From: a virus
Taxonomy: Duplodnaviria > Caudoviricetes
Reading direction: 5' to 3' (one strand)
Virus record (IMG/VR): IMGVR_UViG_3300046678_000400
Location: 5,463-69,462 of that record
Length of the DNA: 64,000 bases
This document shows positions 17,332 to 45,715 of the stretch, piece after piece (within the stretch, counting starts at the first letter, position 1; every line of letters starts with the position of its first letter). The position numbers and the translations under genes were made by a program. The notes beneath the pieces were generated by a model. It had not been told where the DNA came from and made no database searches. It saw nothing but the letters and a program-made list of their open reading frames with translations.

Positions 17332-18192
17332 ATGCTTAACAAATTATTGGGAATTATAGGAATATTTTTAATTGCTATTGCTGGATTTGCGATAACACCG
17401 CAAGAGAAGATGATCCCAGTGATGCCAACTCATAAAACATCTATGGTTGTTGATGGGGCTGCACCACAAGAACTTAGGGATGAAAGCGTGCATCGTTGGC
17501 TTAGTGGGTCTTTTCGCATTGAAAACAAAGTTGGCAGAGGATCAATATTCGGTTCTGGTACAATGTGTTATTATGATCGTCAAACAAACACAGCCTACAT
17601 AATTTCTTGTGGTCACTTGTTTAATGGTGGCGAAAAGACCATGTTTATAGACACATGGTATAAGAATGGTGTTAAACTATCAACACCAGCAAGATATACA
17701 GCAGATGTTATAGGCTATGATGCTATAGAAGATATAGCATTCTTTAAATTTACTCCCGACTGGATTCCTAATGAATATTTCCCAATAGCTCCATTGAATT
17801 TAAAAGTAGATGGTTATTTGTGGTCTGCTGGATGTGATGGAGGAAGGGAAGTTGCTGCCTATAAAGTTAAAGTTAGTGGAATAGAAGGTAAAGGTTCTGA
17901 CAGTTTTCTAATAACCCGTGAGAACAGTCCAAGACATGGCAGATCAGGTGGCGGACTAATGACATCAGAGGGTTGGTATGTCGGAATATGTGTTCGCTCT
18001 TCCGATCCATTTAACGGTACAGGTATTGGATTATTTGTTCCTTTAAATAGAATACACGCTTATTGCAACAGTCATAATTTAGGTTTTCTTCTAGGAAGAC
18101 AACCAGGAAATAATCGCTTGTTAGAACTCCCGATTATAGATCGTCAAGGACAGCAGGGAAATTATCCAAGAGACTATATTCCTCTTCCATAA
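17332..18192 (+). CDS. Exported trypsin-like serine protease
   Basis: Signal peptide; SCGHLF (His), EDIAF (Asp), GRSGGGL (Ser) triad order; GGAGG RBS. Confidence 0.85.
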   Translation: MLNKLLGIIGIFLIAIAGFAITPQEKMIPVMPTHKTSMVVDGAAPQELRDESVHRWLSGSFRIENKVGRGSIFGSGTMCYYDRQTNTAYIISCGHLFNGGEKTMFIDTWYKNGVKLSTPARYTADVIGYDAIEDIAFFKFTPDWIPNEYFPIAPLNLKVDGYLWSAGCDGGREVAAYKVKVSGIEGKGSDSFLITRENSPRHGRSGGGLMTSEGWYVGICVRSSDPFNGTGIGLFVPLNRIHAYCNSHNLGFLLGRQPGNNRLLELPIIDRQGQQGNYPRDYIPLP

Positions 18193-18234
18193 AAATAAAC
18201 ACAGACAATATATAAAGAACTAGGAGATTACACA

Positions 18235-18870
18235 ATGTATGAATTTGATAAGTTTGTTGAAACCAGAGATTATATCAAGTCCTTTCGTAAAGACGCAATA
18301 ACCTTTTTGTCTGAACAAGAATCAGCTTTTCTTAATACTCTAAGCGATGAAGAAGTTAGAGAACTAGTTGAGGCATGGTACAATCCAGCAGATTGGGCTA
18401 GAGCAGGATTAAGAGGTGTAGGTCAACTTGGCCGTGGTATTTCTAACATTCCTAGTCACATTCGAGCCGGTTATCATGGTATTGATACTACTGCCACTGG
18501 CGGCGTAAATACTCAAGATTTTAAAAACCAACTAGCAGCAAAACAATATGGTGTTGATCCTACTCAATACAATGGTAAAAAAGGATTTGACCAAGCCGCA
18601 TTTGATAAAGCTGTTCAGGATAAGCAAGTTTCGCAAATGGACCCTGCTCAACAAAGACAATATTATCAAACACAAACAGCCGGTGTTCAAGATCAAATAG
18701 GTGTACAAAAGGCTAAAAATGACTTGCAAGCTGCTCAACAAGGCGCACAACCAAAAGCTCCACAAGCTAATGTTAAAACAATTATGGCAGGATTGAGCAA
18801 GATAAAAGGAATGACCCCACAAATGGCAAAGTCTATTGCAGCAGCGCTAAACGGAATGGGTATTAAATAA
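18235..18870 (+). CDS. Gln/Ala/Gly-rich probable virion internal protein
   Basis: N-terminus FDKFVE; AGGAG RBS; ATATATAAAG upstream. Confidence 0.5.
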   Translation: MYEFDKFVETRDYIKSFRKDAITFLSEQESAFLNTLSDEEVRELVEAWYNPADWARAGLRGVGQLGRGISNIPSHIRAGYHGIDTTATGGVNTQDFKNQLAAKQYGVDPTQYNGKKGFDQAAFDKAVQDKQVSQMDPAQQRQYYQTQTAGVQDQIGVQKAKNDLQAAQQGAQPKAPQANVKTIMAGLSKIKGMTPQMAKSIAAALNGMGIK

Positions 18871-19456
18871 TAGAACTGTTCCATATTTCAAGATCATAAG
18901 TGGCTGGGTCTTTACCAGCTTCATCACATAATCTCAAAAATTCTTTCTCTAGAATTTTATACCTTTTACCAGTAGGTGTTGCCTCTGGTGCGTCTATACC
19001 TTTTTCTCTAAGAAATCTAAGTACGTGGCGATCTAAACCAGCAACACGAGCGCCTTTTCTACTATGCATTAAAAAACATCTAGCTGTTTTAGGACCAATA
19101 CCGTGAATTGCTTCAAGATCATCTATAGAGCAAGTATGAAGGTCTATATTTGAATAAACTAAAGCCTGAAATGTTTTAGCCTTATTATTATAACAACCAA
19201 TGCCATGCTTTCTAAGTTGTTCTGGTAGACCAGAAACAAGTTCATCCAGTGAAATATCAATATCTCTGATTATTCTAAAAGGCGATGGGTTTGGTTCATA
19301 TAATGACGAAAATGGTCGCCAAGCACTTAGTAGATTATCTAAGCACCTTGCGGCAGTCTTTCCATTCTTACCAGCAGCACAAACCCAAAAAAGAATATGT
19401 TCTTCAAGTCCGCTATATGAAAGATTATAATTAGTAATATTGGTAGGATCAATCAT
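18863..19456 (-). CDS. HhH-GPD DNA glycosylase/lyase (8-oxoG glycosylase-like)
   Basis: LEAIHGIGPKTARCFL helix-hairpin-helix with catalytic K; LDRHVLR catalytic D. Confidence 0.8.
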   Translation of the reverse strand: MIDPTNITNYNLSYSGLEEHILFWVCAAGKNGKTAARCLDNLLSAWRPFSSLYEPNPSPFRIIRDIDISLDELVSGLPEQLRKHGIGCYNNKAKTFQALVYSNIDLHTCSIDDLEAIHGIGPKTARCFLMHSRKGARVAGLDRHVLRFLREKGIDAPEATPTGKRYKILEKEFLRLCDEAGKDPATYDLEIWNSSII

Positions 19457-20562
19457 AGGTAAAACTCTTTTGTTTCATTAACCAAATCTGATAACCACTT
19501 AATATATGGAGTACCACCAGTACCCTTCGGATCGGCGACTTTCTTTTGGATGTAATTAACGGCATATTCTAAATGTTTGTTTCGGAAATCAAATAATCTA
19601 CTTACGCATTGGTTGTATATCTCTGTCAATTCTAACTTTATGGCATAATCTCTAAAGTTCTTTCCTTCGGCTATAGTATCAAGCCAATTACGATGTGTAA
19701 CTGGCATATAGTTTCTCATATCTTTGAGATGATGAGTTAACATGCTATCTTTATGCTTAATGCCTAGTGCTGTTTGAATTGCAGGAATACAGGAACTTTG
19801 CGCACCTGTTTCCCCCCTATAGGTGAATGGCTCTGTACTAACGCCTTCAAAAATAATATTTTCATAGCTGAAAATATATGGACGAACTTTGCTGTAATAT
19901 ACGTCTGTACTGCACTCTTCTTCCATTCGGCAGAGAGTTTTATACATGCCAGTAATGCCATCATATAAATCTTGCAATAATCCACGAATAGATTCTTCTG
20001 TTGGTTCATTTATCATTTTCTGAATGGCGTCTACTGCTAATGCTGCTTTTGATTCGATATCAACATGCACCAAAATGAACCAATTTTCATCCCGTCTTCC
20101 ATCTGATAATGTGAAGTTCTGTAATAATTTAATATTCCCCAATTCAATCGGTTTTAATACGTCAATCCTTTCCCAGTTATACAGGCAGTAAGAAGCGTAA
20201 GATAGAATTGGTGGACGTGATACCATGTTTCCTAATTTTGTTAATGGTATAGCAATTTCCTTCGGCAAAATATAAACTTTTTGTTCTCCTGGAGCATGAA
20301 TAAAAGAACTTGCAAAATAAGAAAACAGCATCATTGCTCTTTCGGCCTGTTCTGGTCTTGAAATGGCATCCAAAAAATTATCAATGCTTTTTATTTGGCT
20401 CAAGCCACCCGTTAATTCCTGCCTGATGGTATGGTCAGATACATACTTTGGTAAATTAAATGCTAAGTTTTCTATCAAAGAAGATTCTGGTAAGTCAAGT
20501 TTCTTGATAGGGTCAGCGCCCGGAAGAAAGCCATTATCTTTTATTTTCCAAAGAGTTGACAT
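19453..20562 (-). CDS. Indoleamine 2,3-dioxygenase family heme protein
   Basis: GFLP..DP, YRGETGAQSS, MRNYMP..HR, FR.KHL (proximal His), KGTGGTPYIKWL. Confidence 0.9.
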   Translation of the reverse strand: MSTLWKIKDNGFLPGADPIKKLDLPESSLIENLAFNLPKYVSDHTIRQELTGGLSQIKSIDNFLDAISRPEQAERAMMLFSYFASSFIHAPGEQKVYILPKEIAIPLTKLGNMVSRPPILSYASYCLYNWERIDVLKPIELGNIKLLQNFTLSDGRRDENWFILVHVDIESKAALAVDAIQKMINEPTEESIRGLLQDLYDGITGMYKTLCRMEEECSTDVYYSKVRPYIFSYENIIFEGVSTEPFTYRGETGAQSSCIPAIQTALGIKHKDSMLTHHLKDMRNYMPVTHRNWLDTIAEGKNFRDYAIKLELTEIYNQCVSRLFDFRNKHLEYAVNYIQKKVADPKGTGGTPYIKWLSDLVNETKEFYL

Positions 20563-20580
20563 TGTTTTGTTCCTAAATGG

Positions 20581-21345
20581 TCAAAGTTGATTGTAGAACG
20601 GACATAATCGCATATAATCGCATCTTTTGCAATGCGGACCTATATTTGGAATTGCCTTATCTGGATTAGTTTCTTCAATTTCTTTATGAACTTGGAGCAT
20701 CCGCACAGGCACAGAATCCAAAGTTTTTTCTGAAAATCTTACTGGATATAATTTGTTATCATCTAAGAAAAATAGTGCAGCTTCGATATTGGCTGCTGGA
20801 ACCTTAAATTTTTCTCTTACTACATAGCAATAACATTGCAATTGTAGATCAGTTGTTATAGTTCTGCTATCTTTTCTCCATTGGCTGGGCTTAGTTGTTT
20901 TCCAATCAAGTAAGAAAAAATTATCTTTCTTGCGTATTACACGATCTATAAAGCCAGTTAGAATCCTTCCCTTGCCGTCCATATCCATATCGAATTTCCA
21001 CTCTATATCTCCATCAAAGCCAATCTTATCAACAAGCCGCTTATAATGTCCAAGTTGTCTTATTAAAGCCTGTTTATATTCTGGGGTTATATCAATAGGC
21101 GCTGGTTTTTGTCCATGTTGTAATTCTATCTTGCCAGTAATTAAATCAGAAGCAATTTTTTCTACTTCTTCACTACCCCTATTTTTTGTATGAAGCTCTA
21201 TTGCCCTATGAACAATTTTGCCATATGTAAAGTAAAACTGTTCAGGTTCAGGAGATTTAATATTTAAATGATATCTAAATTTATACTTTACTTGACACTC
21301 TTTATAACATTGGTCACGAGATACTGATATGTGATTTATTTTCAT
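20581..21345 (-). CDS. PD-(D/E)XK exonuclease (AddB/Cas4-like)
   Basis: CQVKY, YGKIVH, GFIDRV, LLDWKT, LQLQCY, C-terminal HCKRCDYMRLC. Confidence 0.9.
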   Translation of the reverse strand: MKINHISVSRDQCYKECQVKYKFRYHLNIKSPEPEQFYFTYGKIVHRAIELHTKNRGSEEVEKIASDLITGKIELQHGQKPAPIDITPEYKQALIRQLGHYKRLVDKIGFDGDIEWKFDMDMDGKGRILTGFIDRVIRKKDNFFLLDWKTTKPSQWRKDSRTITTDLQLQCYCYVVREKFKVPAANIEAALFFLDDNKLYPVRFSEKTLDSVPVRMLQVHKEIEETNPDKAIPNIGPHCKRCDYMRLCPFYNQL

Positions 21346-21395
21346 AGTATGGTAATATAATTAAGTATCGTCCTATTGTAATTAAATTAAAACTT

Positions 21396-22445
21396 ATGTC
21401 AACAGAAATTTCTTTCGATATTTTTTGGGAATGGGCAATAACCAAGTTTGGCGAAGAGAATTGCGAACAAAGAGGAGAAGAGGTTTGTATTAATTCTCCC
21501 TTTGTGCCAGAACATTCGCCCGACCGAGGCCAACATCTCTGGTGTAATCCATCCAAAGGCGTTTATCACTGCTGGAAAAGTGATAAATCTGGAACACTCC
21601 ACAATCTTGTCATGTTTAAAGAAGGCTGTGATTTCTTAGAAGCCCAAGAAATATTAGGCGGTGACCGAGCACTTTATAAGTTAAATGATAAAATCACAGA
21701 ATTTTTCAAAAATAAAAAACACCAAAAAGAATCAGAAAACAAAATTACAACTAAAAAGGATAATCTATTAGAACTTCCGCCTGGCGCTGTTAGAATATCT
21801 GATTTAAAACCGGATGATAGACTTAGAATTATAGCAGAAAGTTATCTAAAGTCAAGATCACTTTCGATTGGAAATTTGTATATTTGCGGTAATGGCAGAT
21901 ATGCAATGAGAATTATTATTCCATATTACGGTCCAAATAATCAATTAATCTATTTTAATTCTCGTGACATTACTGGCCAATCCAAACTACGTTATAAGGG
22001 ACCGCCCAAAGAAGTAGGTATTGGAAAAGGTGACGTAGTTTGGATGAATAGTTGGCCAGCAGAAGGATCGACTGTACATCTAGCAGAAGGTGAGTTTGAT
22101 GCAATGGCTTTGTGTCAAATAGGTTTTAACGGTGGAGCAGCAGGGGGTAAAAACTTTAGTGATAAGCAACTACAACTATTAAAACCGTATAATATAACAA
22201 TTTGTTTTGACTTAGATAAATCAGGGACAGAAGCACTAAATAAGGTTGGAGCTTTTCTAAGGGCTAAACCTTTTGTTAGAGGTAACAATAATAGAATAGG
22301 CTACGTTAAGCCAGCACAAGGCTACAAGGACTGGAACGATATGCTAATCAAACTTGGAACAAACATTCTTCAATCTTACATAAAGGACCGTGAAAAACTT
22401 CTATCTTGGGATGAACTAGAAAAGCTACAGTTGAAATCTATTTGA
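21396..22445 (-). other. Minus-strand overlap check for the primase locus: no credible antisense gene
   Basis: Only short antisense ORFs overlap the primase. Confidence 0.2.
21396..22445 (+). CDS. dnaG: DNA primase (zinc-binding + TOPRIM)
   Basis: SPF...YHCWKS zinc-ribbon region, RIIIPY, YFNSR, LAEGEFDA, CFDLDKSG, KDWND. Confidence 0.92.
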   Translation: MSTEISFDIFWEWAITKFGEENCEQRGEEVCINSPFVPEHSPDRGQHLWCNPSKGVYHCWKSDKSGTLHNLVMFKEGCDFLEAQEILGGDRALYKLNDKITEFFKNKKHQKESENKITTKKDNLLELPPGAVRISDLKPDDRLRIIAESYLKSRSLSIGNLYICGNGRYAMRIIIPYYGPNNQLIYFNSRDITGQSKLRYKGPPKEVGIGKGDVVWMNSWPAEGSTVHLAEGEFDAMALCQIGFNGGAAGGKNFSDKQLQLLKPYNITICFDLDKSGTEALNKVGAFLRAKPFVRGNNNRIGYVKPAQGYKDWNDMLIKLGTNILQSYIKDREKLLSWDELEKLQLKSI

Positions 22446-22945
22446 GAGCCTACATGAAAAATCGAATTACTAACGGCCATAAAGATGATATCACGGAATT
22501 GAGAACATTTTTTTTGGCTTGTGAATTTAAACCAAATTCCCCCCTTTTTTCCATAATTGACCCATTTGCATACAATATACAACCTGCCTTTATAAATGGA
22601 TCATTGGGAATTATTTCTTACGATCCAGAAACTTATTCTATAATAGATATTGATGACGCTGCTGCTCCATTATTGGGTTATATATTAACCATTACAGAAC
22701 CAGACACGCTAACAATGTTAGATAAGATCAAGGGATATTATGGACCAGAAGCATTTAATACTCATCAAAAAAAAATAATAAGAGCATTTACTGAAATTGA
22801 TGTTTATCAAAGTGCTTGGATTTATCAACTAAGCGAAACTGTATTAGAAAAGTATGAACAAATAGAACAAGTAGAATTAGGAATATGGGATGAACTAGAT
22901 GAAACTCAAGTGAAGTTTCTAGAAAAAATTGGTGAAAGCCTATGA
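22442..22945 (+). CDS. Divergent gamma-glutamylcyclotransferase (AIG2)-fold protein
   Basis: FF..CEFKP, A.INGSL, LLGYIL, LDKIKGY, AWIYQL; catalytic Glu position is K. Confidence 0.45.
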   Translation: MRAYMKNRITNGHKDDITELRTFFLACEFKPNSPLFSIIDPFAYNIQPAFINGSLGIISYDPETYSIIDIDDAAAPLLGYILTITEPDTLTMLDKIKGYYGPEAFNTHQKKIIRAFTEIDVYQSAWIYQLSETVLEKYEQIEQVELGIWDELDETQVKFLEKIGESL

Positions 22946-23331
22946 TAATTGACGGTGTTGATTTTTGGAAAGAAAACAATCACACACTAAGAATGTGGGA
23001 CGAGCAATATAAAATTGGTCCATTAAATACCCGCATCTCTGAAAAAGTTAGAGTAGGAGAAGAATTTACAATTTCATTAGCAACAGAAGATTTTTCATTA
23101 GTTAAACTACTACAAAAACAAGCCAGTATGCACCATGAATGTAGTATGTTAATAACTGTAGAAAATCCAACAACACGAAAAGAAATGTATCAAGTTTTTT
23201 TTACAATACAACTTACAACCATTGAAATAGCTGACTTCTTAGAAGATGTAATAGAAATAAGCGTACATTATATGTGTAAATCAGCAGAGGACGTAACATA
23301 TTATGATTCACAAGCAATACGAGAAATTTAA
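22942..23331 (+). CDS. Hypothetical protein
   Basis: ORF in an overlapping operon. Confidence 0.5.
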   Translation: MIIDGVDFWKENNHTLRMWDEQYKIGPLNTRISEKVRVGEEFTISLATEDFSLVKLLQKQASMHHECSMLITVENPTTRKEMYQVFFTIQLTTIEIADFLEDVIEISVHYMCKSAEDVTYYDSQAIREI

Positions 23332-23668
23332 AGGTAAAATCTGCACCATCCTAACAGCACCTACTAGCTTTCCTTTTCGTGATCCAAAACAACATGCAGA
23401 GTTTTTCACTGGTGAAGTTGTTGAGGTAGATGCCTATGGAGTTAAGATTAAGAATCTTAATAACAATACATTCGGATTCTTCTCATATCCTTTAATTGGA
23501 ATAGTTGAAGAACAAACTGTATCTAAGTCTGATCCTAATTACCAAAAAATTAAAGATGAACTCGAAAAGAAAGAGCCAAAAAAGCCCATCCTTAGTACAG
23601 GGGGTTCAACAACCTTTATGCCCATAGAAGAAATGACCAAGATGGCTAAGAAAATTAAAGAACGTTAA
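23303..23668 (+). CDS. Sm/LSm-like small beta-barrel protein
   Basis: KGKICTIL...FFTGEVVEVDAYGVKI pattern. Confidence 0.4.
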   Translation: MIHKQYEKFKGKICTILTAPTSFPFRDPKQHAEFFTGEVVEVDAYGVKIKNLNNNTFGFFSYPLIGIVEEQTVSKSDPNYQKIKDELEKKEPKKPILSTGGSTTFMPIEEMTKMAKKIKER

Positions 23669-24126
23669 TCAGCGACATACTCACCGATTTTCTTTAGACA
23701 CATAATAGCAGAATCAAAATTATGATATTCACTATTAATGTATTCCAAACTTAACATGTCGAACTTCTCTAAATTCTCATCAGAAATTTCAAAATAGAAA
23801 TTCCTGTGATGTCTACCAGCGCACTTAAATCCATGCATCTTCAAATAAGCCGCTGCGCCTAAATCGGAGATACCCTTCTTTGTATTTGCTGTAGAAGCTA
23901 ATCGCTCGGATACCTTTTTTAAACTCATTATACAAGCATCAAAATCATGATATGGCGAATTGATATATTCTAAATTTAGTGCCTCAAAAGGCTCTATTTC
24001 ATCTTGACTAACATCAAAGTAAAATGTGCGACCTTTTCTGCCAACACACTTAAACCCTTTCATTCTTACATACGCTGCCTCTCCCAAATCATCAGATGAC
24101 TTGCGGAGTTTTTTGTTATCTTTCAT
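23665..24126 (-). CDS. Tandem-repeat small-domain protein (DUF5659-like), possible DNA-binding adaptor
   Basis: Two ~70-aa repeats: DLGEAAYVRMKGFKCVG / DLGAAAYLKMHGFKCAG. Confidence 0.55.
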   Translation of the reverse strand: MKDNKKLRKSSDDLGEAAYVRMKGFKCVGRKGRTFYFDVSQDEIEPFEALNLEYINSPYHDFDACIMSLKKVSERLASTANTKKGISDLGAAAYLKMHGFKCAGRHHRNFYFEISDENLEKFDMLSLEYINSEYHNFDSAIMCLKKIGEYVAD

Positions 24127-24269
24127 GTCTTTCCTTCTTTCTTATAGTTCTTATTGCACTCATTACATAGATAACAAAACATTAATATTGGATGGCAAAA
24201 GAATTTGTTTCCATCCGTTTGTGTCTTATTACATTTACAACAATGCAATTTCTTATTTGATTTATTCAT
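24123..24269 (-). CDS. 48-aa C4 zinc-finger microprotein (below the ORF-track cutoff)
   Basis: Manual translation MNKSNKKLHCCKCNKTQTDGNKFFCHPILMFCYLCNECNKNYKKEGKT; stop overlaps the next ATG. Confidence 0.6.
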   Translation of the reverse strand: MNKSNKKLHCCKCNKTQTDGNKFFCHPILMFCYLCNECNKNYKKEGKT

Positions 24270-24270
24270 A

Positions 24271-25284
24271 TTAATTAACCGAATGATTCTCTGCTGCTAC
24301 TAATGCTCCACGGGATACAGCATACAAATGGTCTGCTGGTTTTCTAATTTCCCCAACTGGAATACTCCATTGTGATTCCTTCACCATTTCCGTAAACAAT
24401 TCAACGAAGCCCGGCGGAGATGAAGTGCCACCTGCTACAATAACATCAAGAGGATTTTCTGTAACTGCTCTAGCTCCAGCTTCAATAATTCCCTTCTTGA
24501 TAGAAACTACCGTCTTTTGAATCAGTAATTCATACTGAGTCTTAATAGCTCTTTCCAACAATGTTGATGGAGCCTTAGTTAAATCAATCTTGGTTTTTTC
24601 TTTATTAATGACTGTTGGAGTTTCACCACAAGCCTTTGCTGCCATCTTATCTATCCAGTCACCAGCATTAACAAGCGACATCTGAAATATTGGCTGACTG
24701 TAAATAGAATAACACAAGTTAACCATACCAGAACCAAATGAAATACCGATTCCTGTGTATTGTTTTGATAATAATTCAGCTAGGACCAAACATAAGCCTT
24801 CATTGATTGAAAATGCTTGTACCGTTTTATTGTTGATGTTATATGCTTTGAATATTGACTTTAAAACTGCATTGTGATAATCTGCGTCGGTATCTTGATT
24901 AATTGCATTAGCTGGAACTGAGTAATATAGAACTTCCTTATCTTTATCTACTTCGCCCATAAGAGAATGAATCATAATAGAAAGTGTGCGAAAGGCATCT
25001 TTTTCTTGTGGGTTCAAACAGCCATCTTTCATGGGTCTATGCAAAACAATGCCCGGCAAAGTATAAGCCATATCAATAGCAGCTTGCCCCACGATATAAG
25101 CAAATTTTTCACGCTCAATAATAGGAATAGGTGGCTTAATTGACTTCATAGCGTTTAGTGTAGTTTTATTTTCGTCAACTAAAAATTCTATAAAACAATT
25201 AACCTGTTTGCGATTTTTAACTTCTCCATCTGTTCTTTTACTACAAATTAAGTTGTATGTTCCAACGTCAAAACCTATTGGCAT
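24271..25284 (-). CDS. Actin-superfamily ATPase (ParM/MamK/MreB-like)
   Basis: Phosphate-1 GFDVGTYN, connect INEGL, phosphate-2 GISFGSGMVN, AGDWID, adenosine VAGGTS. Confidence 0.85.
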   Translation of the reverse strand: MPIGFDVGTYNLICSKRTDGEVKNRKQVNCFIEFLVDENKTTLNAMKSIKPPIPIIEREKFAYIVGQAAIDMAYTLPGIVLHRPMKDGCLNPQEKDAFRTLSIMIHSLMGEVDKDKEVLYYSVPANAINQDTDADYHNAVLKSIFKAYNINNKTVQAFSINEGLCLVLAELLSKQYTGIGISFGSGMVNLCYSIYSQPIFQMSLVNAGDWIDKMAAKACGETPTVINKEKTKIDLTKAPSTLLERAIKTQYELLIQKTVVSIKKGIIEAGARAVTENPLDVIVAGGTSSPPGFVELFTEMVKESQWSIPVGEIRKPADHLYAVSRGALVAAENHSVN

Positions 25285-25413
25285 AAAATCTCCTAAATAA
25301 TTCTGATAATAATATAGTCAGTCTTGAAAGTTTATTTTTTGCATTTCCTATATAATTTGTCTGATTCTTTACTCATGATATGTTATATACTTTTTTAATA
25401 TTAAGGAGTTATC

Positions 25414-25755
25414 ATGAGTGGAGTTACAGCAAACTTTATATACTGGTGGAACATAATCAGGGGAATTTTCCGCATTGGAGAATTTAATATTACGGGTTCA
25501 ATTACTCTTGGCCCAGGAGATCACGAAATAGTTATAGATACTACTTTCCCAAATCCATCAGTAATATTGTTGCAATGCGAAGAACCAGATAATGGTGGCA
25601 TCACTACTTGTATGGGTAATTTAAATTGGGTTGCCGCAAGAACAATGGAGCAAGGTTTCATACTTTACGCAAGAATAGTTACAGACAGCTGTGATATTAA
25701 TTGGGTAGTTAAATATGATGCCTCTACTCCTATAAAACCAACTGATAAAATTTAA
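25414..25755 (+). CDS. Hypothetical beta-rich protein
   Basis: AAGGAG RBS. Confidence 0.55.
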   Translation: MSGVTANFIYWWNIIRGIFRIGEFNITGSITLGPGDHEIVIDTTFPNPSVILLQCEEPDNGGITTCMGNLNWVAARTMEQGFILYARIVTDSCDINWVVKYDASTPIKPTDKI

Positions 25756-29090: not shown

Positions 29091-29091
29091 G

Positions 29092-37432: not shown

Positions 37433-37451
37433 GGCATTTCACCTATATTTT

Positions 37452-38495: not shown

Positions 38496-38716
38496 TGTTT
38501 AGCCTTTCAATGTATCCATTACACATATGTTTCTCATTATATAACTTGATTGCATCATGCCATTTATTAGTTAATATTAGAAAATTTATTGACTTATAAT
38601 CTTCTTCTTTAAAAAATGAAATATTTTCATCAATTACTTCTTGTACAGCTACTCTCCAGTCAGATACACTATAATCATCGTGATTGCCAGTGAAATCAGT
38701 TATGCGAAGCCAAACT

Positions 38717-39631
38717 TCATTTTTCATGTAATCTTTTCTCCAATTCTTTTGCAATAGCATTTCTTAAATTGCAATAATAAATATGTTTATAAGACTTCTC
38801 GAAATAATCCTTAGCTTTCTTTTTCTGTTTTCCTTTTATAGTTTTAAGTCTTTTAGCCTTAATTGGAATTAAATGAGTAACGTTATCACACAAATCATAA
38901 AAATTTACTGGATGGTGTCCGTGCCAAATACCTAAAGCTGGCGTATTGGTACAACCTGCTGTATGAAGTGGCCCAGAATCAACGCCAATATATAATTTGG
39001 CTTTACTTATAAGCGCTGCTATAGTCCCAGCGCTAGATAATTTCTCACCCTTCCAAATAGGATTATCTACATCTGGGTTGAATATAGTTTTATTATCTGG
39101 TAGTGGAGATTCCCTTTTCCAATCTAATATTACAGGCGTAAATCCATACTTAATAATCCTATTGCATATAAACTCTGCATCTTTATGAGTTAAACTTTTT
39201 GCGTGTTTAAGAGTTTTGGCAAGATAGTGAACTATAATGAATGGTTTTGGTAAAGTAGAAATATAATTAGAAGCTAGAGTTTCTTCTTCTTGGGTTATTG
39301 TAACATTATATCCTTTATAAAGTTCTTCAATAGGTTCTACATGAAAGTAGTTTTGCAAGAATCTTGTTGGTTTAGAAGACGGGAGATTAATGCTGCAAAA
39401 CTCTGGTGGAGGCCAATCAACATCTAATAAATTATCATATTCTCTATAGTCGTATTTGTCTTGTTTTCTTATAAAGATTTTCTTAGCAAAATCTTTAAAA
39501 TAAGATTCCTTTCCTTTACCAACCTCCATGTCTACAGACCAGTCGGGGAAGTAGTGTTTTATGTGTCTTGTTACAATAGTAAATTGGGCATTGTCCCCCA
39601 ACCCGTGCCTCATTCTTAATAACACTTTCAT
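38717..39631 (-). CDS. GT9 heptosyltransferase-like glycosyltransferase
   Basis: HGLGDNAQ, LYIGVDSGPLHTAG. Confidence 0.85.
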   Translation of the reverse strand: MKVLLRMRHGLGDNAQFTIVTRHIKHYFPDWSVDMEVGKGKESYFKDFAKKIFIRKQDKYDYREYDNLLDVDWPPPEFCSINLPSSKPTRFLQNYFHVEPIEELYKGYNVTITQEEETLASNYISTLPKPFIIVHYLAKTLKHAKSLTHKDAEFICNRIIKYGFTPVILDWKRESPLPDNKTIFNPDVDNPIWKGEKLSSAGTIAALISKAKLYIGVDSGPLHTAGCTNTPALGIWHGHHPVNFYDLCDNVTHLIPIKAKRLKTIKGKQKKKAKDYFEKSYKHIYYCNLRNAIAKELEKRLHEK

Positions 39632-39933
39632 ATTATTTTTTTGATGTTTTTTATCTCATCAAATCTTCCTTCTAATGCTAAGTTAATTATCTTTTCTTCT
39701 AACTTTTTACTTATAGTGTGTTTTTTCGGATATTTACCACAATGTTTGTCTTTTAACTGAGGAACAAGTGATTCTAGTGTTGGTTTAAAAGTCGTATAGC
39801 ACTTTGAACAACCAACCCTGCCAATCTCTAATACATATTGCAACAAAGTTCCACATTCACATTTAGTATACTTTGATTGACTTTTAATTTGAAATTGTTG
39901 CTTTAAATCCGATAATAATTTTTCATAATTCAT
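39628..39933 (-). CDS. McsA-like zinc protein (truncated)
   Basis: CECG...GRVGCSKCYTTF...HCGKYPK and a UVR-like tail. Confidence 0.7.
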   Translation of the reverse strand: MNYEKLLSDLKQQFQIKSQSKYTKCECGTLLQYVLEIGRVGCSKCYTTFKPTLESLVPQLKDKHCGKYPKKHTISKKLEEKIINLALEGRFDEIKNIKKII

Positions 39934-40973
39934 TACATCATCCCAGGAAGGACGCCATTACCAAAACCAATACCACCAATTTTAAATGGTCTAATCCCCA
40001 ATCCGTGACTACAACTACCTGCTAAAACATCTTCCCAAAAATCAGGAAATCTAGCGTCATTTGTTGAGGAATTGGAATTATAGATAAGGGGCACATGTGT
40101 TGAGTTTTTGACTATTATATTTGTAGGATAAGTTTTTTCATTAGACAATAGGGCATTTCCCTCAAAAATAAGTTCTATCTGAGTTTTAACTCTGATTGGT
40201 TTAATTTCTTCGATAGAAATAGGACGACTTCGACTTCTTCTTCGGTCGTCATACAAACTTGGTATTTCATATTTTGCAGGAACACCAAGAAGAAAAGGTC
40301 TTTCTTGTTCCCAAAAATTAATGTTGTAATTTCTTTGGTCAATGCGGTAATCGTTGTTAAACAATTCAAAAAACTCAGCAGCACCATCAGGTCCGCAATT
40401 TTGAATAATATCATAGGTCAACAGAATAGCAACAGCCATCCAATAATTTGCAGAACAATATGGTTGCCTTTGGAACTTATTGGCAATTTTCTTTGCCCAT
40501 TCTGATCCAATACGAAAATGAATTTCTATTGGATAACAGATTCCGTGGAGTTGATTATGATAATGTTTTTGAAAATCCAATATGTTTTTGAAGTGATGAC
40601 GAGCAATTCTTTGTGATCGCCCAAAAATAGCCCAAGCTACAGGACTTACATATTCGCTCCCAGCTAAAATAGTCTGATCCTTTGCCATACTATGAAAGAT
40701 TCTTGAAAGCATTAACATGGAGGTTTCTGCATATTCTATCCAATGTTTATGCTTGCGGTGCTCCAGAGGAGTGCCATCATTTACCAAGTTTTCAAAATAC
40801 CACTTGAGCCATTTGATCTTTTTTGCGATAATGACTGGCACATAATATTTGTGAACTTCATAGATTTCGCCCGTGCCCTCGATATGTTCGTAATGAAGTT
40901 TGGTTGTGAAGCCTCTTTCAAATGCTTCTTTGGCATTTTTCTGGTAATATGATAATTGTGAGTTTTGGTACAT
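39933..40973 (-). CDS. Hypothetical protein
   Basis: 346-aa ORF, no recognised motif. Confidence 0.55.
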   Translation of the reverse strand: MYQNSQLSYYQKNAKEAFERGFTTKLHYEHIEGTGEIYEVHKYYVPVIIAKKIKWLKWYFENLVNDGTPLEHRKHKHWIEYAETSMLMLSRIFHSMAKDQTILAGSEYVSPVAWAIFGRSQRIARHHFKNILDFQKHYHNQLHGICYPIEIHFRIGSEWAKKIANKFQRQPYCSANYWMAVAILLTYDIIQNCGPDGAAEFFELFNNDYRIDQRNYNINFWEQERPFLLGVPAKYEIPSLYDDRRRSRSRPISIEEIKPIRVKTQIELIFEGNALLSNEKTYPTNIIVKNSTHVPLIYNSNSSTNDARFPDFWEDVLAGSCSHGLGIRPFKIGGIGFGNGVLPGMM

Positions 40974-41013
40974 AGATAACCCCGTTAACTAACTTAATAA
41001 GCAGAGGTAAAAT

Positions 41014-41982
41014 ATGCCAAGAATTTTGGTCACTGGTGGTACTGGTTTCATTGGAAGTCAATTAGTCAAAAGGCTTGTTGCTGATGGTAATGATGTTATT
41101 ATAACAGGAAAAGGTACAGAACAAAAGACCAAAATCCCATGTATTTCATATTCTTTTCACGATCTAAATTGGAATGAAATACACCCCATCGACATTATTT
41201 TTCATCAAGCAGCAATCAGCGACACCACCCACAAACCAGAAGAAGATTACCATAAGGTAAATGTGGAACAGAATCAAATATTATTTAACGATGCAGTAAA
41301 TCACGGATGCAAAAAGATTGTTTATGCTTCATCTTGCGCTGTTTATGGCGATGTTGGCAATTACAAAGATGCGTATTATGACTTGGTTCTTCCTAATGAG
41401 AAGCCAAAATTTCGTAAACCATTTAGCGAAAACGATGCAACTCTCAATACGCCGCTCAATGCTTACGGGCGATCAAAAATATTATTTGACCAATGGGCTA
41501 TGGAGTTTGGCAAAAAGGAAGATGTTACAGTTATTGGATTAAGATATAGTAATGTTTATGGTCCTGGCGAAACGCACAAAGGCAAAAGTTCTTCAATGAT
41601 TTGGCAGCTTATTCAACAAATGACAATAGGTAAACCAAAATTATTTAAGTGGGGCGAACAGAGAAGAGATTTTGTTTATATTGATGACGTTATAGAAGCA
41701 AATTTATTAGCTACAAAACAAAAAATAAGTGATGTGTTCAATGTTGGGAGCGGAATTGCCAGCAGCTTTAATTCTATAGTGAAAACAATTAACGAAGAAT
41801 TAAAGACAAAACATGCCATAGAGTATATTGAAAATCCATATAAAGATGTATATCAAGATTTTACTCAGTGTGATTTAACTAAAGCAAATAAAATACTTCA
41901 ATATTATCCAAAATACAACATCATGAAAGGCGTTAAAGAATATCTTAAAAAAATATCGTCTAATGCTTTATACGGGGTGTAA
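41014..41982 (+). CDS. hldD: ADP-L-glycero-D-manno-heptose 6-epimerase-like SDR
   Basis: VTGGTGFIG, HQAAISDT, YASSCAVYG, PLNAYGRSK, LRYSNVYGP.E.HKG, RDFVYI. Confidence 0.85.
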   Translation: MPRILVTGGTGFIGSQLVKRLVADGNDVIITGKGTEQKTKIPCISYSFHDLNWNEIHPIDIIFHQAAISDTTHKPEEDYHKVNVEQNQILFNDAVNHGCKKIVYASSCAVYGDVGNYKDAYYDLVLPNEKPKFRKPFSENDATLNTPLNAYGRSKILFDQWAMEFGKKEDVTVIGLRYSNVYGPGETHKGKSSSMIWQLIQQMTIGKPKLFKWGEQRRDFVYIDDVIEANLLATKQKISDVFNVGSGIASSFNSIVKTINEELKTKHAIEYIENPYKDVYQDFTQCDLTKANKILQYYPKYNIMKGVKEYLKKISSNALYGV

Positions 41983-42814
41983 TGTCTACTGAATGAGGCT
42001 TATTGGAAATTAATGTAAAGTCTCCAAGTATATTAAAACTAAATGTTACGTGATGACTTTTGGCATTTTCAGATATAGTTCTTCTAAACCAAATCGGCAT
42101 TGTATCATTTGGATGAAGATTTCCTATAATTAAAGGATCACTACTAGAAGTTTTATAAAACTTAACTCCATTTGGTGTATTGTTTTCAAAGCCTATATTC
42201 GGAGCAACTGTATTAATAGGTCCACCTTCTTGAACCCTTACAGTAGACATATCTACACCTTCACTTACTATGCCTATTACTTCTTGTTGTCTTCCTGGTT
42301 TGAAAGTAACTATAAAATCAAATCCACTAGTTGATTCATTGCCAATACACTTAACTCCTTGAAAATGGTCAGATGAGTTTAAAGCTGCTGCTATATTATC
42401 AGCAACTTGCTCTGCATTTGTACTCCAATTTATTTGACGTGTTATATTGGTATGAACTATGCCATTTTGTTTCAATCCGTAAACTATCTGAAAAAAACCT
42501 CTAGTTGGTTTGCTGTTTGTTATTATAGCTTGAATTTCACTACGAAGCATTACTCCTAATTCAATTACCGTATCGGAACTTCTTTGATCTATAGATAAAA
42601 TTAGGTCTTTTAATATTTCTTCTTCATTATCATTTTTGATATAAAAACAACGATTACTAATACTGCCAGTTAAAGCCTCTTGGAATGTTACATCGTCAAA
42701 CAAATTTACATTATCATCAATTTGATGGATTGAAATTGATCCTCCAATAGATTTATTTGCTTTTGAGTTATTTTTACCACCAGACAACCAGAAAGAAATA
42801 TCATTTTTAATCAT
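41960..42814 (-). CDS. Probable virion structural protein
   Basis: LSGG.NN...NKSIGG.IS start typical of phage tail-associated proteins. Confidence 0.5.
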   Translation of the reverse strand: MIKNDISFWLSGGKNNSKANKSIGGSISIHQIDDNVNLFDDVTFQEALTGSISNRCFYIKNDNEEEILKDLILSIDQRSSDTVIELGVMLRSEIQAIITNSKPTRGFFQIVYGLKQNGIVHTNITRQINWSTNAEQVADNIAAALNSSDHFQGVKCIGNESTSGFDFIVTFKPGRQQEVIGIVSEGVDMSTVRVQEGGPINTVAPNIGFENNTPNGVKFYKTSSSDPLIIGNLHPNDTMPIWFRRTISENAKSHHVTFSFNILGDFTLISNKPHSVDITPRIKH

Positions 42815-42891
42815 AAACTGCCTTATTTAGATTTCTTTTAATTAAAAATATTTACAAGAATCATATATAAAGCAAGGATAGGAGATAAAAA

Positions 42892-43953
42892 ATGATTGAT
42901 TTTCAGACTTACCGCATTGTTAATAATCTACTTAATGAATCCGTTATGGGGATGCACAGCCTTGGTGTTGTTAGTCCTCAAGTTCTAGGTATGGCAAGTA
43001 ACATGCCTCTAACAAATGAAGCACCTATGAAGTTAAAACTTAAAGGTATTCCACACGGCGACGAAGAGGGTGGTCCTCCTGCTCCTATGGGTGATGAAAT
43101 GGGTGGAGAGATGGGCAGCGAAATGGGTGGTGAAATGGGTCCAGAAGGTCCAGGCGGCGAAGGCATGGATGATATGGGCGATGACCACGGCGACGAAATG
43201 GGCGATCCTGATATGGATGGCGACGGTGATGTTCATGCTAAAATTGCTGAACTAGAGGCCGAACTAGAAAAACTAAAAGCTCAAATTGGCGATGATGAAG
43301 ACGCCGAACTAGATCACGAAGACGACCTTAGCGAACCAGAGATGGACGGTGATGAAGATATGGCCGGTGATGATCTAGGTGATGAAGAAGGTGGCGACGA
43401 AAAGCCAGAACTTCCTTTCAAAAAAGGCAAGAACGCTCCTTTTATGAAGAAGGAATGTGGCGAAGATATGGGTGCAAAAGGTGGAGATGGAGAATTGGTC
43501 AATAAGAAAGATGGACCTACCTTTATGATGAAAAAAGCCAAGAAGATGAAGGGCGATGTTTCTATCGGTAAAGGTAAGAAATGCTCTGATGGCAAAATGT
43601 GCAAAAAATGTGATAACAATATGGATAAAAAAATGAAGAAAAATATTAAAGAAGAAAACGTTAAAGTTTCCGATTATGCAAGACCAAAGACACTTGATAA
43701 TTCTCAAGAGGCTTGGGAACAGAGAGTTTTCAATCAAATCGCATCTTCGGATGTTCGCAAGAAACACTCTAATGGTATGAGAGCATTTACAAATGAAGAT
43801 TTGCTATTGCCTCCAAATCCACTAGAATCTGTACCTCCTCCTAGCCCAGGCCAAGTAGGATTTGCTCCAAACCAACCAGTAGGTGGAGATTTGGGATTCA
43901 CAACAGAAGCCATTTCTGACATCATGCAAAGATTAGCAAGACTAGAAAAGTAA
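42892..43953 (+). CDS. Low-complexity acidic/basic protein (scaffold or internal head-like)
   Basis: GGEMG repeats, Asp/Glu tract, short coiled coil, Lys/Met-rich tract; AGGAG RBS. Confidence 0.55.
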   Translation: MIDFQTYRIVNNLLNESVMGMHSLGVVSPQVLGMASNMPLTNEAPMKLKLKGIPHGDEEGGPPAPMGDEMGGEMGSEMGGEMGPEGPGGEGMDDMGDDHGDEMGDPDMDGDGDVHAKIAELEAELEKLKAQIGDDEDAELDHEDDLSEPEMDGDEDMAGDDLGDEEGGDEKPELPFKKGKNAPFMKKECGEDMGAKGGDGELVNKKDGPTFMMKKAKKMKGDVSIGKGKKCSDGKMCKKCDNNMDKKMKKNIKEENVKVSDYARPKTLDNSQEAWEQRVFNQIASSDVRKKHSNGMRAFTNEDLLLPPNPLESVPPPSPGQVGFAPNQPVGGDLGFTTEAISDIMQRLARLEK

Positions 43954-43971
43954 TTTATCACTGTATATAAC

Positions 43972-43998
43972 AAAAGCCCATTTTAATGGGCTTTTTTT
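43972..43998. terminator. Bidirectional intrinsic terminator
   Basis: AAAAGCCCAT-TTTA-ATGGGCTTTT. Confidence 0.85.
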
Positions 43999-44055
43999 AT
44001 TGGTTTATAATTACACTTTACCACGCTAACAACTGCTAGCGAATAAGCTCTATGG

Positions 44056-44274
44056 TCAGCAACTTCCACCACGCCTTGGATTTTGTCTTTGTGGCGGTAC
44101 AGGTGGAGTTGGCTGTGGTTGTGGTTCAACTTTTGGTTGAGGAGCTTCTATCCGTGGCGCAACAGGATTTATTGGTTGTGCTGATTCTAGTATAGGATAT
44201 TGCTTGTTATATTCAATTCCTCCTATTGCTAGTCCTAGTATAAGAACCAATAAAGCCAAAATTTTATTACTCAT
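44056..44274 (-). CDS. Small Pro-rich membrane-anchored protein
   Basis: N-terminal TM helix; PQP repeats; GGAGG RBS. Confidence 0.6.
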   Translation of the reverse strand: MSNKILALLVLILGLAIGGIEYNKQYPILESAQPINPVAPRIEAPQPKVEPQPQPTPPVPPQRQNPRRGGSC

Positions 44275-44498
44275 ACTTCCTCCTTGTATAATATTTATAC
44301 ACGAACACTATAATAAAATAAGGAGAAATTTATGAAGAAGAAAGTCAAAAATTTTTGGTTGAATAGAATTGAATACCAAAAGAAATTAATTAGTGAACCC
44401 AAAAAGCCAGTGGTAATTCCTTCTATCTACAACACTAAGGCAGACAAAAAAATTGAAAAACTAGTAAAAAAATTGGATTATCAAATATAAATAAAAAC

Positions 44499-44792
44499 AT
44501 GAAAAAGATAATATTAATACTATTGGCATTACCACTCTTTGCTATGATTGGATGCAATAATCAACCACAGGTACAACCACAACCAGAACGTAAAATAGAG
44601 ATTGAAATTAAGCCGCAACCACAGCCACAACCTGGACCTCCACAAGTTATTAGTCCAATGTATATGAGTGGTTATTGGGATGGTTATTTTGGTAGATATG
44701 TAAGTGCTAGATGGGCATTTTTCGATTATAGAGAAGGTTGGACACTAGGCAATTTTGACCGTCAACACAATATTAAGAGATTTCCACATTAA
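44499..44792 (+). CDS. Pro/Gln-rich lipoprotein
   Basis: Signal peptide with lipobox MIGC. Confidence 0.65.
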   Translation: MKKIILILLALPLFAMIGCNNQPQVQPQPERKIEIEIKPQPQPQPGPPQVISPMYMSGYWDGYFGRYVSARWAFFDYREGWTLGNFDRQHNIKRFPH

Positions 44793-45715
44793 GGAAATGG
44801 AACGTAATCATCTGGGTATTTCTTTTGAGGATTATTTTTATCAACAACTGGAATATCCAAACTTCGTCTTCCAAATATAGCAAAATTAATATTAACAGCT
44901 ATAACTCTGCTGCTAATGTCTTGCGCAGCTCTATATTCGCAATTTTTAAGGAAATTAGTTAATTCTTCTGCTGTTATAACACTGTCCTGGTTTGGATCAA
45001 TACTTTTATTTTTTTCTGCTAATGCATTAAAGACTTTTTCCATTATTCTTCCTTGAACACCAACAGCACTTTCTGTTGTAGCATCAGAACTAGCAATCAT
45101 ACTAAGTAACTTCTGTTGACTTTCTGGAAGAGAATTAATAGCAGGCAAACTGGCAGAAGCAAAACAACTTAACTGCCACCACAAAACCTTTTGATTATTT
45201 TCCTCAGCCGCACCAGCAATAGCATTCATTAAAATTGAACGCTGTCCTATATTGTGAAGTTGACCATTAGCAGAACCATGACCGATTGTAAAGACAATTA
45301 CAGTATCTCCTGCCTCAGCATCTATCTTCATTTGTTGACTAATAAACTCTTGAAGTTTTGTTTGTTCTTGAACTTCAATGCCCTCACGCAAATCAATTCT
45401 ATTTGTGCTTATTAATGAGTTGAGGAATAGAACCTGAAATCTTCCATCTTTGTTTATGAAGTGATTTCCAATGCCTTTTATTTCAAGACCCTTACTTTTA
45501 GCCCCCTGGACAGAAGACATAGCCAAATTAGCATCAATGTCTGCAATGTTTTCTTTTGAATGCTTGAGTGCCAATAGTCTAATTTTAATAACTTTACTAT
45601 TGCTTGAAATTGTTACTTGTTCACTACTTTGGTCTTTAACGTCTTCTATAACAGATAATGAAAAGGTGAAAGTGGCTAAACTAATTACTAATAAGATGGA
45701 TAATATTCTCTTCAT
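44789..45715 (-). CDS. Exported clan CD (caspase/legumain-like) cysteine peptidase
   Basis: Signal peptide; IVFTIGHGS (His-Gly) and WWQLSCFAS (Cys) dyad spacing; IASSD. Confidence 0.7.
   Translation of the reverse strand: MKRILSILLVISLATFTFSLSVIEDVKDQSSEQVTISSNSKVIKIRLLALKHSKENIADIDANLAMSSVQGAKSKGLEIKGIGNHFINKDGRFQVLFLNSLISTNRIDLREGIEVQEQTKLQEFISQQMKIDAEAGDTVIVFTIGHGSANGQLHNIGQRSILMNAIAGAAEENNQKVLWWQLSCFASASLPAINSLPESQQKLLSMIASSDATTESAVGVQGRIMEKVFNALAEKNKSIDPNQDSVITAEELTNFLKNCEYRAAQDISSRVIAVNINFAIFGRRSLDIPVVDKNNPQKKYPDDYVPFP

Follow-up and report, generated by a model that had tools for sequence, protein, structure and literature searches.

The 64,000-nucleotide stretch of viral DNA analysed here (the window) is part of a huge phage, known from a 69-kb record that is about 14% complete. 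It encodes two predicted exported proteases with unrelated folds, an HtrA/DegS-like serine protease and a legumain/caspase-like cysteine protease, which end in the same C-terminal tail. The original prediction had noted this likeness, and the observation is confirmed: both open reading frames exist as described, although the positions it had assigned to the two motifs included the stop codons. The ungapped alignment of the two 25-residue ends gives 11 identities, and a six-frame search of the 69-kb record with the first tail finds the second at E = 8e-6. No third copy lies in the window or in the record.

Two predicted proteases with one C-terminal tail

Table 1. Features of the two tagged genes (positions in the window; residue numbers refer to the respective protein).
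Positions	Strand	Feature	Observations
17332-18192	+	Family 1: HtrA/DegS-like serine protease, 286 aa; N-terminal anchor, protease domain, no PDZ domain, C-terminal tail	Pfam Trypsin_2, E 3e-9; AF2 model pLDDT 85; Foldseek top hits HtrA, DegS, DegP and DegQ at E about 1e-9; 142 homologues, all from metagenomic contigs up to 691 kb
17332-17400	+	Signal peptide or signal anchor of family 1, residues 1-23 (inferred from sequence)	MLNK followed by 17 hydrophobic residues
17509-18081	+	Protease domain of family 1; predicted catalytic His95 (17614-17616), Asp134 (17731-17733), Ser205 (17944-17946)	All three residues invariant in the family alignment
18106-18189	+	C-terminal tail of family 1, residues 259-286; ends RLLELPIIDRQGQQGNYPRDYIPLP at 18115-18189, stop at 18190-18192	Tail HMM E 3e-12; pLDDT 50-54
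44789-45715	-	Family 2: legumain/caspase-like (clan CD) cysteine protease, 308 aa; signal peptide, EF-hand-like loop, C-terminal tail	No Pfam match; AF2 model pLDDT 82; Foldseek top hits legumain, caspases and GPI transamidase subunit K; 56 homologues
45653-45715	-	Signal peptide of family 2, residues 1-21 (inferred from sequence)	MKR followed by a hydrophobic stretch ending SLS
44873-45586	-	Caspase/legumain-like domain of family 2; His146 (45278-45280), Cys184 (45164-45166)	Both residues invariant in the family alignment, in the clan-CD order His then Cys
44960-44998	-	EF-hand-like loop of family 2, DPNQDSVITAEEL	One homologue carries Pfam EF-hand_5
44792-44872	-	C-terminal tail of family 2, residues 282-308; ends RSLDIPVVDKNNPQKKYPDDYVPFP at 44792-44866, stop at 44789-44791	Tail HMM E 2e-11; pLDDT 52-60

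The folds of the two enzymes are unrelated. Family 1 has the chymotrypsin fold with a His-Asp-Ser triad, as supported by a Trypsin_2 match of 38 bits against a cut-off of 27.6, but neither Pfam nor NCBIfam detects a PDZ domain, and its model ends in a helix followed by the disordered tail. Family 2 matches legumain, caspase and the GPI transamidase subunit PIGK at E 2e-5 to 1e-3 with probability 1.0, but with TM values of only 0.3-0.45, and it contains a (K/R)-H pair in addition to the His-Cys dyad. Both proteins start with a basic n-region followed by a hydrophobic stretch of 15-17 residues. Such an N-terminal segment is found in 110/120 homologues of family 1 and in 46/56 of family 2, and 11 and 9 members, respectively, carry lipobox-like sequences; export is inferred from sequence alone. 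In both AF2 models the catalytic domains exceed a pLDDT of 90, whereas the tail is disordered and without secondary structure.

Distribution and variation of the tail

The tail has the consensus LA(R/N)xIPI(I/V)DRNNPQGxYPxDYIPLP and is present in 117 of 120 homologues of family 1 and in 47 of 56 homologues of family 2, which excludes chance as the cause of the likeness. Most of its conserved columns are at 80-100%, and the others listed here are at 70% or above: over 205 tails, the values in percent are P98, I87, D94, R70, N75, P80, Q78, Y82, P79, D73, Y91, I84, P90 and P100. The same tail also ends a Pfam Peptidase_C14 caspase lipoprotein, a natural fusion of M14 and Trypsin_2, and a third family (family 3) with C39-like features. 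In the alignment of family 3, Cys78, His158 and Asn177/Asp179 are invariant, whereas the resemblance to a papain fold rests only on leads (ESM Atlas features 0.94, and TM 0.52-0.55 to C39_2/C70 clusters), with no Pfam or PDB sequence match and nothing found in a PDB profile search.

An HMM search of 1.84 billion representative proteins gave 61 hits at E <= 1e-3, and all the real ones belong to these families. The exceptions are translated CRISPR arrays and two unverified single records, namely P0185, which combines a weak ParB_N match with the tail, and P0209, which combines LysM, the end of family 3 and the tail. In four complete related genomes of 459-572 kb (G001-G004), only these peptidases score significantly. 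A match to a known sorting domain, which had been named beforehand as grounds for rejecting the idea, was not found: 42 tails scanned against NCBIfam at E <= 10 gave no family, Pfam gave only two chance rows, and no PDB sequence matched. A scan of 185,579 bacterial species genomes with a tightened tail alignment found only an internal chance match in a Bacteroidota lipoprotein, so that the consensus form is not seen there, although this was one pattern only. The literature searches that we ran did not turn up a description of the tail.

The phages themselves are known from metagenomes only. A tblastn search of both proteases against 50,697 GenBank phage records found nothing, and the nearest terminase, in the uncultured phage LR756511, is 40% identical. 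In IMG/VR, a search with a single protein found nothing, whereas searches with alignments found 111 family 1 loci and 15 family 2 loci, although the detection patterns differ. Family 1 is a core gene of the clade in conserved synteny, while the other tagged families are accessory, and no conserved neighbours of family 2 were found. The only BLAST-detectable anchored families shared by G001-G004 are family 1, an M28 aminopeptidase, an M14 carboxypeptidase and one unknown family. The membrane-anchored M28 and M14 exopeptidases carry no tail, and M28 lies within 10 kb of family 1 in 34/80 loci. In a fifth large relative, G005, which is 85% complete, no family 1 gene was found, and family 2 is a pseudogene with two stops.

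Tails of different families in one genome are more alike than tails from different genomes. Cross-family tails of the same genome score 3.04 BLOSUM per column, against 2.56 for different genomes (permutation p = 1e-4, also without a near-duplicate lineage). This rests on 15-16 same-genome pairs from related phages. The excess is position-specific, with 0.49 in register against 0.04 +/- 0.09 with columns permuted, which rules out amino-acid composition as its cause. Gene conversion is likewise rejected, as identical codons at identical residues amount to 2/11 in the window and to 0.45 against 0.36 overall. A concerted change is seen in G003, in which families 1 and 3 both changed DYIPLP to KIPMP, and these are the only two open reading frames in 572 kb with IPMP near the C-terminal end.

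Possible roles of the tail

The original prediction had proposed an undescribed C-terminal sorting or docking signal that targets phage proteases to a common periplasmic, membrane or virion site, and this interpretation is partly supported. The motif is a real, portable module kept by selection at the protein level on exported proteases of unrelated folds, and its disorder and its co-variation within a genome are both expected of a docking signal read in trans. However, it is not a general sorting signal, because apart from the two unverified records it was found only on peptidases. A virion site is unlikely, because many members are lipoproteins or signal-anchored. The lipoprotein at 44499, which had been suggested as receptor, is not conserved beside the protease; among five large relatives it has a homologue only in G002, about 170 kb or more from any tagged gene.

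We think that the tail is most likely a linear docking peptide of about 24 residues that this clade of huge phages attaches to its exported endopeptidases, although our confidence in this reading is no more than even. In this view, the enzymes would be sent across the inner membrane by an N-terminal signal peptide, signal anchor or lipobox, and in the envelope the tail would be bound in trans by one shared, co-evolving partner that brings all the proteases to the same site, substrate or complex. The analysis itself establishes that the module is shared by unrelated folds and nearly restricted to peptidases, that it is conserved at the protein level, that it does not pack on its own catalytic domain in the models, and that it changes in concert in different families of one genome. 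Export, binding in trans and the identity of the partner are, in contrast, inferred, and the type of envelope is deduced from lipoboxes and signal anchors only. As putative partner we would favor a phage-encoded member of the same exported peptidase set, that is the HtrA-like hub or the M14 carboxypeptidase, and after these a conserved host envelope protein that is their common substrate. The restriction to peptidases is unusual for a general address label, and the co-variation could also arise if the tails bind each other, or if one enzyme processes them all.

As an alternative, the tails may assemble the proteases with one another, with the HtrA-like protease or a tail-tail contact as hub, which would result in a mixed protease complex or an activation cascade in the envelope. 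The co-variation is what mutual binding predicts, and the core status of family 1, the fusion of M14 with family 1 and the G005 case are compatible with this, but G005 is one incomplete genome. A complex prediction for family 1 with family 2 gave weak support, both for this view and for the docking peptide, with a score of 0.56 and 0.00 for the best of 3 controls. That mark was reached by 58 of 80 solved complexes and 2 of 110 mismatched pairs, but at 0.60 or under by only 7 of the 80 solved complexes and by both mismatches that passed. The runs agree in at least 78% of contacts and partner pLDDT is at least 81, but no interface was reported, so that the model does not say whether the tail is involved, and it used the proteins' own alignments and not the calibration alignments. 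The AF2 monomer models give no sign that the tail docks on family 1's own domain, and five prolines in 22 residues make a self-pairing beta structure unlikely. Overall, we consider this possibility unlikely, though not negligible.

More doubtful is a processing or sorting signal that would be cut by the clan-CD enzyme (family 2 or the C14 caspase) after the nearly invariant Asp/Asn in IPI(I/V)D|RNN, either for pro-peptide removal or in a sortase-like transpeptidation, as by PorU in type IX secretion and PIGK in GPI anchoring. The fold of family 2 would fit, and the position before R is D in 94% and N in 5% of 205 tails, residues that Asx-specific clan-CD peptidases accept. Also, both known clan-CD "sortases" act on C-terminal signals of exported proteins. 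The three complete relatives with canonical tails, G001, G002 and G004, each carry a clan-CD enzyme, whereas G003 lacks one and has lost or moved this Asp in family 1; however, this comparison comprises four genomes only, and family 3 of G003 keeps LPIID without a clan-CD gene. Conservation runs through all 24 residues and is highest at the very end, while cleaved signals are usually loosely conserved downstream of the cut. Further, no hydrophobic helix follows the motif, and family 1 loci outnumber family 2 loci in IMG/VR.

Very unlikely, in our view, is a protective cap or a stalling and docking site for the phage's own M14 carboxypeptidase, in which the proline-rich end would stop C-terminal trimming, just as the N-terminal anchor would shield the other end from the M28 aminopeptidase. 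Of the 1-5-residue extensions after the last Pro, 61% end in Arg or Lys, which basic-specific M14 enzymes would remove before stopping at Pro, and the M14 and M28 enzymes are core genes of the clade, with one natural fusion joining M14, Trypsin_2 and the tail. A cap, however, needs only a few prolines and not 24 conserved residues that co-vary between families, and the exopeptidases themselves lack the tail. Finally, chance, recent duplication, gene conversion or membership in each catalytic fold is refuted by the hundreds of homologues that keep the tail, by the differing codons and by the disorder in both models, even though only two copies lie in the window.

A more far-reaching reading is tentative and rather doubtful on present evidence. 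The tail could be the assembly or sorting code of a phage-built proteolytic machine in the host envelope, in which endopeptidases of different catalytic classes would be docked onto a common hub or substrate, possibly with the legumain-like member as a sortase-type processing enzyme, and would work with the untagged M28 and M14 exopeptidases as a complete digestion line. Such a system would have no described counterpart in phages. Huge phages carry many exported proteins whose roles are unknown, and here one short peptide ties together proteases of three or four catalytic families across a whole clade. It marks them as parts of one system and gives a direct handle for finding what that system attacks or builds in the host envelope, with lysis, receptor removal, superinfection exclusion and nutrient scavenging among the options. 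If its reader is found, the tag would also be a compact, portable docking peptide for periplasmic proteins, and its concerted change in different genes of one genome is a clean natural experiment for identifying the partner by co-evolution.

Relation to known systems

Small C-terminal tags on exported proteins are established in the LPXTG/sortase, PEP-CTERM/exosortase and GlyGly-CTERM/rhombosortase systems, the latter for example on the Vibrio cholerae serine protease VesB (PMC13393428). As here, a short conserved tag is shared by otherwise unrelated proteins with N-terminal signal peptides, proteases among them. Those tags are tripartite, with a motif, a hydrophobic helix and a basic cluster, whereas nothing hydrophobic follows the present motif: usually only 0-5 residues follow it, with a median of 2 after the last Pro, 35 of 162 tails end exactly at it, and the extensions are rich in G, R and K.

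The clan-CD transpeptidases PorU, acting on the type IX secretion CTD, and PIGK/GPI8, acting on the GPI signal, likewise combine exported cargo carrying a C-terminal signal with a clan-CD peptidase of the same system. The type IX CTD, however, is a folded beta-sandwich domain of about 80 residues, within a range of about 70-100, for which no Pfam or TIGRFAM-type model matched here, and the GPI signal ends in a hydrophobic stretch, whereas this tail has 24 residues, is polar and disordered and sits on the clan-CD enzyme itself; its cleavage is hypothetical.

A four-residue likeness exists to the SurA-binding aromatic peptides (Ar-X-Ar-X-Pro), since (D/E)-Y-I-P, the most conserved end of the tail, equals the core E-Y-I-P of the selected ligand WEYIPNV, which binds the P1 domain (PMC11401910). 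The first aromatic residue of that motif is missing, and we regard SurA mimicry only as a lead.

In the dockerin-cohesin assembly of cellulosomes and the cargo-loading peptides of encapsulins, enzymes of unrelated families carry one common C-terminal docking module that binds one scaffold and co-evolves with its receptor. Dockerin is a folded calcium-binding domain of about 70 residues and encapsulin peptides act in the cytoplasm, whereas here the cargo is peptidases only and a scaffold is hypothetical.

With HtrA, DegS and DegP, family 1 shares the protease fold and the DegS-like layout of an N-terminal anchor followed by a periplasmic protease, and envelope proteolysis in those systems is steered by short C-terminal peptides recognized by PDZ domains. 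In family 1 the tail stands where the PDZ domain would be, and it is on the enzyme and not on the substrate. Unlike PDZ ligands, which are fixed at the free carboxy-terminus, its distance from the end varies from 0 to 21 residues in family 1 and from 0 to 44 in family 2.

Two predicted exported proteases with the same tail

The 69,462-base IMG/VR virus record, of which the window covers 64 kb, is rated 14% complete by CheckV. The window has 36% G+C and an array of 24 tRNA genes, and relatives of its genes lie on contigs of 430-690 kb, so that it is a piece of an uncultured huge phage. No cultured or GenBank phage was found to carry either protease, and the nearest terminase, with 40% identity, is found in an uncultured 595-kb phage.

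The original prediction held that two unrelated proteases of the window end in the same C-terminal motif, and this observation is confirmed, as both ORFs and both tails are present at the predicted positions. The ungapped alignment of the tails has 11 identities in 25 residues, and no further copy was found in the record. The first protein (family 1) matches Pfam Trypsin_2, and its model (pLDDT 85) superposes on the protease domains of HtrA, DegS, DegP and DegQ at E values of about 1e-9. His95, Asp134 and Ser205 are invariant among 30 relatives, and a PDZ domain is lacking. The second protein (family 2) has no Pfam match, but its model (pLDDT 82) hits legumain, caspases and the GPI transamidase subunit K, and His146 and Cys184 are invariant in the clan-CD order. 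The two folds are unrelated. A canonical EF-hand-like calcium loop (DPNQDSVITAEEL) is conserved in the clan-CD family about 30 residues before the tail, which hints at calcium control. Both proteins begin with a basic n-region and a hydrophobic stretch of 15-17 residues, as do 110 of 120 and 46 of 56 members of the respective families, and a fifth of the members that were inspected closely have clear lipoboxes.

Positions of features in the window and in related records (G002, G003 and G005 are large related phage genomes; L190, L191 and L122 are related loci)
Feature	Record and position	Strand
EF-hand-like loop of the clan-CD protease	window 44960-44998	-
Proline-rich lipoprotein	window 44499-44792	+
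Protein with one transmembrane helix	window 44056-44274	-
Region with three inserted genes	window 18235-20562	
Co-oriented 116-aa ORF upstream of the serine protease	window 16946-17296	+
M28 aminopeptidase and M14 carboxypeptidase genes	L190:18776-19918, L191:9221-10306	+, +
Family 3 ORF with a tail-like segment at residues 21-37	G002:C1:327338-328108	+
Broken clan-CD gene	G005:C1:313700-314383 (locus L122)	
ORF resembling TnpB	G003:C1:491830-492924	-

Distribution and conservation of the tail

The tail is a family-wide module. Of 120 listed homologues of the serine protease, 117 carry it, and so do 47 of 56 homologues of the clan-CD protease, most of the rest of which look truncated. Aligned over 205 tails, the consensus is (S)(L)A-R-x-I-P-I-(I/V)-D-R-N-N-P-Q-G-x-Y-P-x-D-Y-I-P-L-P, with 70-100% conservation at fourteen positions. 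The last proline is followed by a median of two residues (range 0 to 44), and the tail is therefore near the carboxy-terminus but not fixed at it. When 1-5 residues follow, 61% of these extensions end in Arg or Lys. A conserved N-terminal segment of the serine protease (MP-x-V-x-DDP, residues about 28-45 in the alignment of this family) resembles the first half of the tail (IPIIDRNNP), as does the segment AAQVPVVENNQPP after the anchor of one papain-like member in G002. This may be a second, weaker copy of the motif, or chance.

A third family with the same tail lies beside the serine protease in three related loci and elsewhere in other genomes. Its members have about 250 aa and a signal anchor or lipobox, with invariant Cys (GIQC), His (PGHAM) and Asn/Asp (DNSD) residues. 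ESM Atlas features (0.94) and structure (TM 0.52-0.55) point to C39-like papain-fold peptidases, but only as leads, and Pfam and PDB sequence searches with this family returned nothing; we refer to it as papain-like in this tentative sense. One complete genome also encodes a member of a fourth family, a lipoprotein with a Pfam Peptidase_C14 caspase domain (E 3e-9) and the tail, and one metagenomic protein fuses an M14 carboxypeptidase, a Trypsin_2 domain and the tail.

The tail is nearly restricted to peptidases and to these phages. A profile of 42 tails was run with HMMER against 1.84 billion representative proteins and gave 61 hits at E <= 1e-3. About fourteen of these are translated CRISPR arrays with repeats reading ...IPIRDWN... 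(among them the hits P0178, P0217, P0219-P0221, P0223-P0225, P0227, P0228 and P0231-P0233), which are a source of false positives for any search with this motif. The others are members or fragments of these families, except for two unverified single records, namely a weak ParB_N plus tail and a LysM plus the end of family 3. In the fifteen large related records first scanned, each has 0-3 tagged genes and every tagged ORF that was translated fell into these families, and nine more records gave 1-2. When every ORF of four complete genomes (459-572 kb; G001-G004) was scored, only these peptidases were significant. The tails match nothing in Pfam, NCBIfam or the PDB, and a scan of 185,579 species genomes with one pattern gave a single internal chance match. 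Our literature searches found no description of the tail; a recent preprint on envelope proteins of huge phages reports sortase B substrates with classical PXTG signals, but not this motif.

In both AlphaFold models the catalytic domains are confident and the tails are not (pLDDT 50-60, no secondary structure), so that in these models the tail does not pack on its own enzyme. Tails of different families are as alike as tails within one family across genomes (2.56 against 2.54 BLOSUM units per column), whereas tails of different families in the same genome are more alike still (3.04). Shuffling tails among genomes within each family reached that value in 1 of 10,000 trials, and the result holds when a near-duplicate lineage is dropped. 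The excess disappears when the columns are permuted (0.04 +/- 0.09 against 0.49), so it is position-specific and not a matter of composition. It is also not recent gene conversion, as only 2 of 11 identical residues in the window share a codon, and overall the share is 0.45 against 0.36 between genomes. The clearest single case is the complete 572-kb genome G003, in which the serine protease and the papain-like protease have both replaced ...DYIPLP by ...KIPMP and are the only two ORFs with IPMP near the C-end. Such concerted, position-specific change in non-homologous genes of one genome is what a shared, co-evolving binding partner predicts.

Genomic context and candidate partners

The serine protease is a core gene in fixed synteny, with a Gp80-like gene upstream and a PD-(D/E)XK exonuclease and a primase downstream, and with terminase, ferritin and an actin-like gene nearby. 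None of these suggests a reader of the tail. In 75 of 86 related loci the exonuclease gene directly follows the serine protease, whereas in the window a lineage-specific insertion separates them, which consists of a gene for a 211-aa Q-rich protein and two genes previously read as an HhH-GPD glycosylase and an IDO-like protein. In 81 of 86 related loci a conserved gene of about 150 aa with no known family is transcribed divergently just upstream of the serine protease, but in the window this slot holds an unrelated ORF. In G003, a 364-aa ORF that looks like an IS200/IS605-type TnpB lies between the papain-like and serine protease genes, and no Gp80-like neighbour was detected by BLAST.

The clan-CD gene has no conserved neighbours. 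In the 436-kb relative G005 (85% complete) it is broken by one TAG and one TAA, and no family 1 gene was found in that genome. In the window, a 97-aa proline-rich lipoprotein (lipobox MIGC) overlaps the stop of the clan-CD gene convergently by 4 bases, and nearby is a 72-aa protein with one transmembrane helix and a proline-rich tail that ends in Cys; the pair may be lysis-related. The lipoprotein had been put forward in the original prediction as a candidate receptor, but this is rejected, as among five large relatives it has a homologue only in G002, far from the tagged genes.

Clustering of the ORFs of the four complete genomes showed that only 103 families are shared by the three with canonical tails. 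Among the BLAST-detectable families shared by all four genomes, only four have an N-terminal anchor: the serine protease, an M28 aminopeptidase (Pfam E 3e-41), an M14 carboxypeptidase (E 2e-31) and one family of about 300 aa without assignment. The membrane-anchored M28 and M14 enzymes do not carry the tail. The M28 gene lies within 10 kb of the serine protease in 34 of 80 loci, and in G002 the serine protease, M28, the papain-like protease and M14 all sit within 18 kb. The clade is thus inferred to export a set of tagged endopeptidases together with untagged exopeptidases, and together these look like a complete exported set. This makes the M14 enzyme or the HtrA-like enzyme natural candidates for the reader, although on present evidence they are no more than candidates. 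A complex prediction for mature family 1 with mature family 2 gave only weak support, with a score of 0.56 against 0.00 for the best of 3 controls. That mark was reached by 58 of 80 solved complexes and 2 of 110 mismatched pairs, but at 0.60 or under it was reached by only 7 of the 80 solved complexes and by both mismatches that passed. The runs agree in at least 78% of contacts and partner pLDDT is at least 81, but no interface was reported.

Interpretation and comparison with known systems

The best-supported account is a disordered docking peptide read in trans by one co-evolving partner, which would bring the exported endopeptidases of the phage to one place. The presence of the tail on unrelated folds, its conservation, its near-restriction to peptidases and its concerted change within genomes are results of this analysis, whereas export, binding in trans and the identity of the partner are inferred. 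The original prediction of an undescribed sorting or docking signal that targets the proteases to a common site is therefore partly supported. Conservation across all 24 residues, strongest at the far end, argues for a long binding epitope and not only a cleavage site.

Three rival readings are retained. The tails could mediate a mutual assembly of the proteases. Alternatively, the clan-CD member could carry out a cleavage or transpeptidation after the nearly invariant Asp/Asn; the presence and absence of clan-CD genes in the complete genomes fit this reading, but with only four genomes. Finally, the tail could be a cap or docking site for the M14 carboxypeptidase. The (D/E)-Y-I-P core of the tail equals that of the SurA P1 ligand WEYIPNV, which we keep only as a lead.

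The tag does not show the defining features of the tripartite sortase-type signals, nor those of the T9SS CTD or of PDZ ligands. In its proposed function it most resembles common docking modules such as dockerins or cargo-loading peptides, but it is much shorter than the former and, with export as inferred here, extracytoplasmic unlike the latter.
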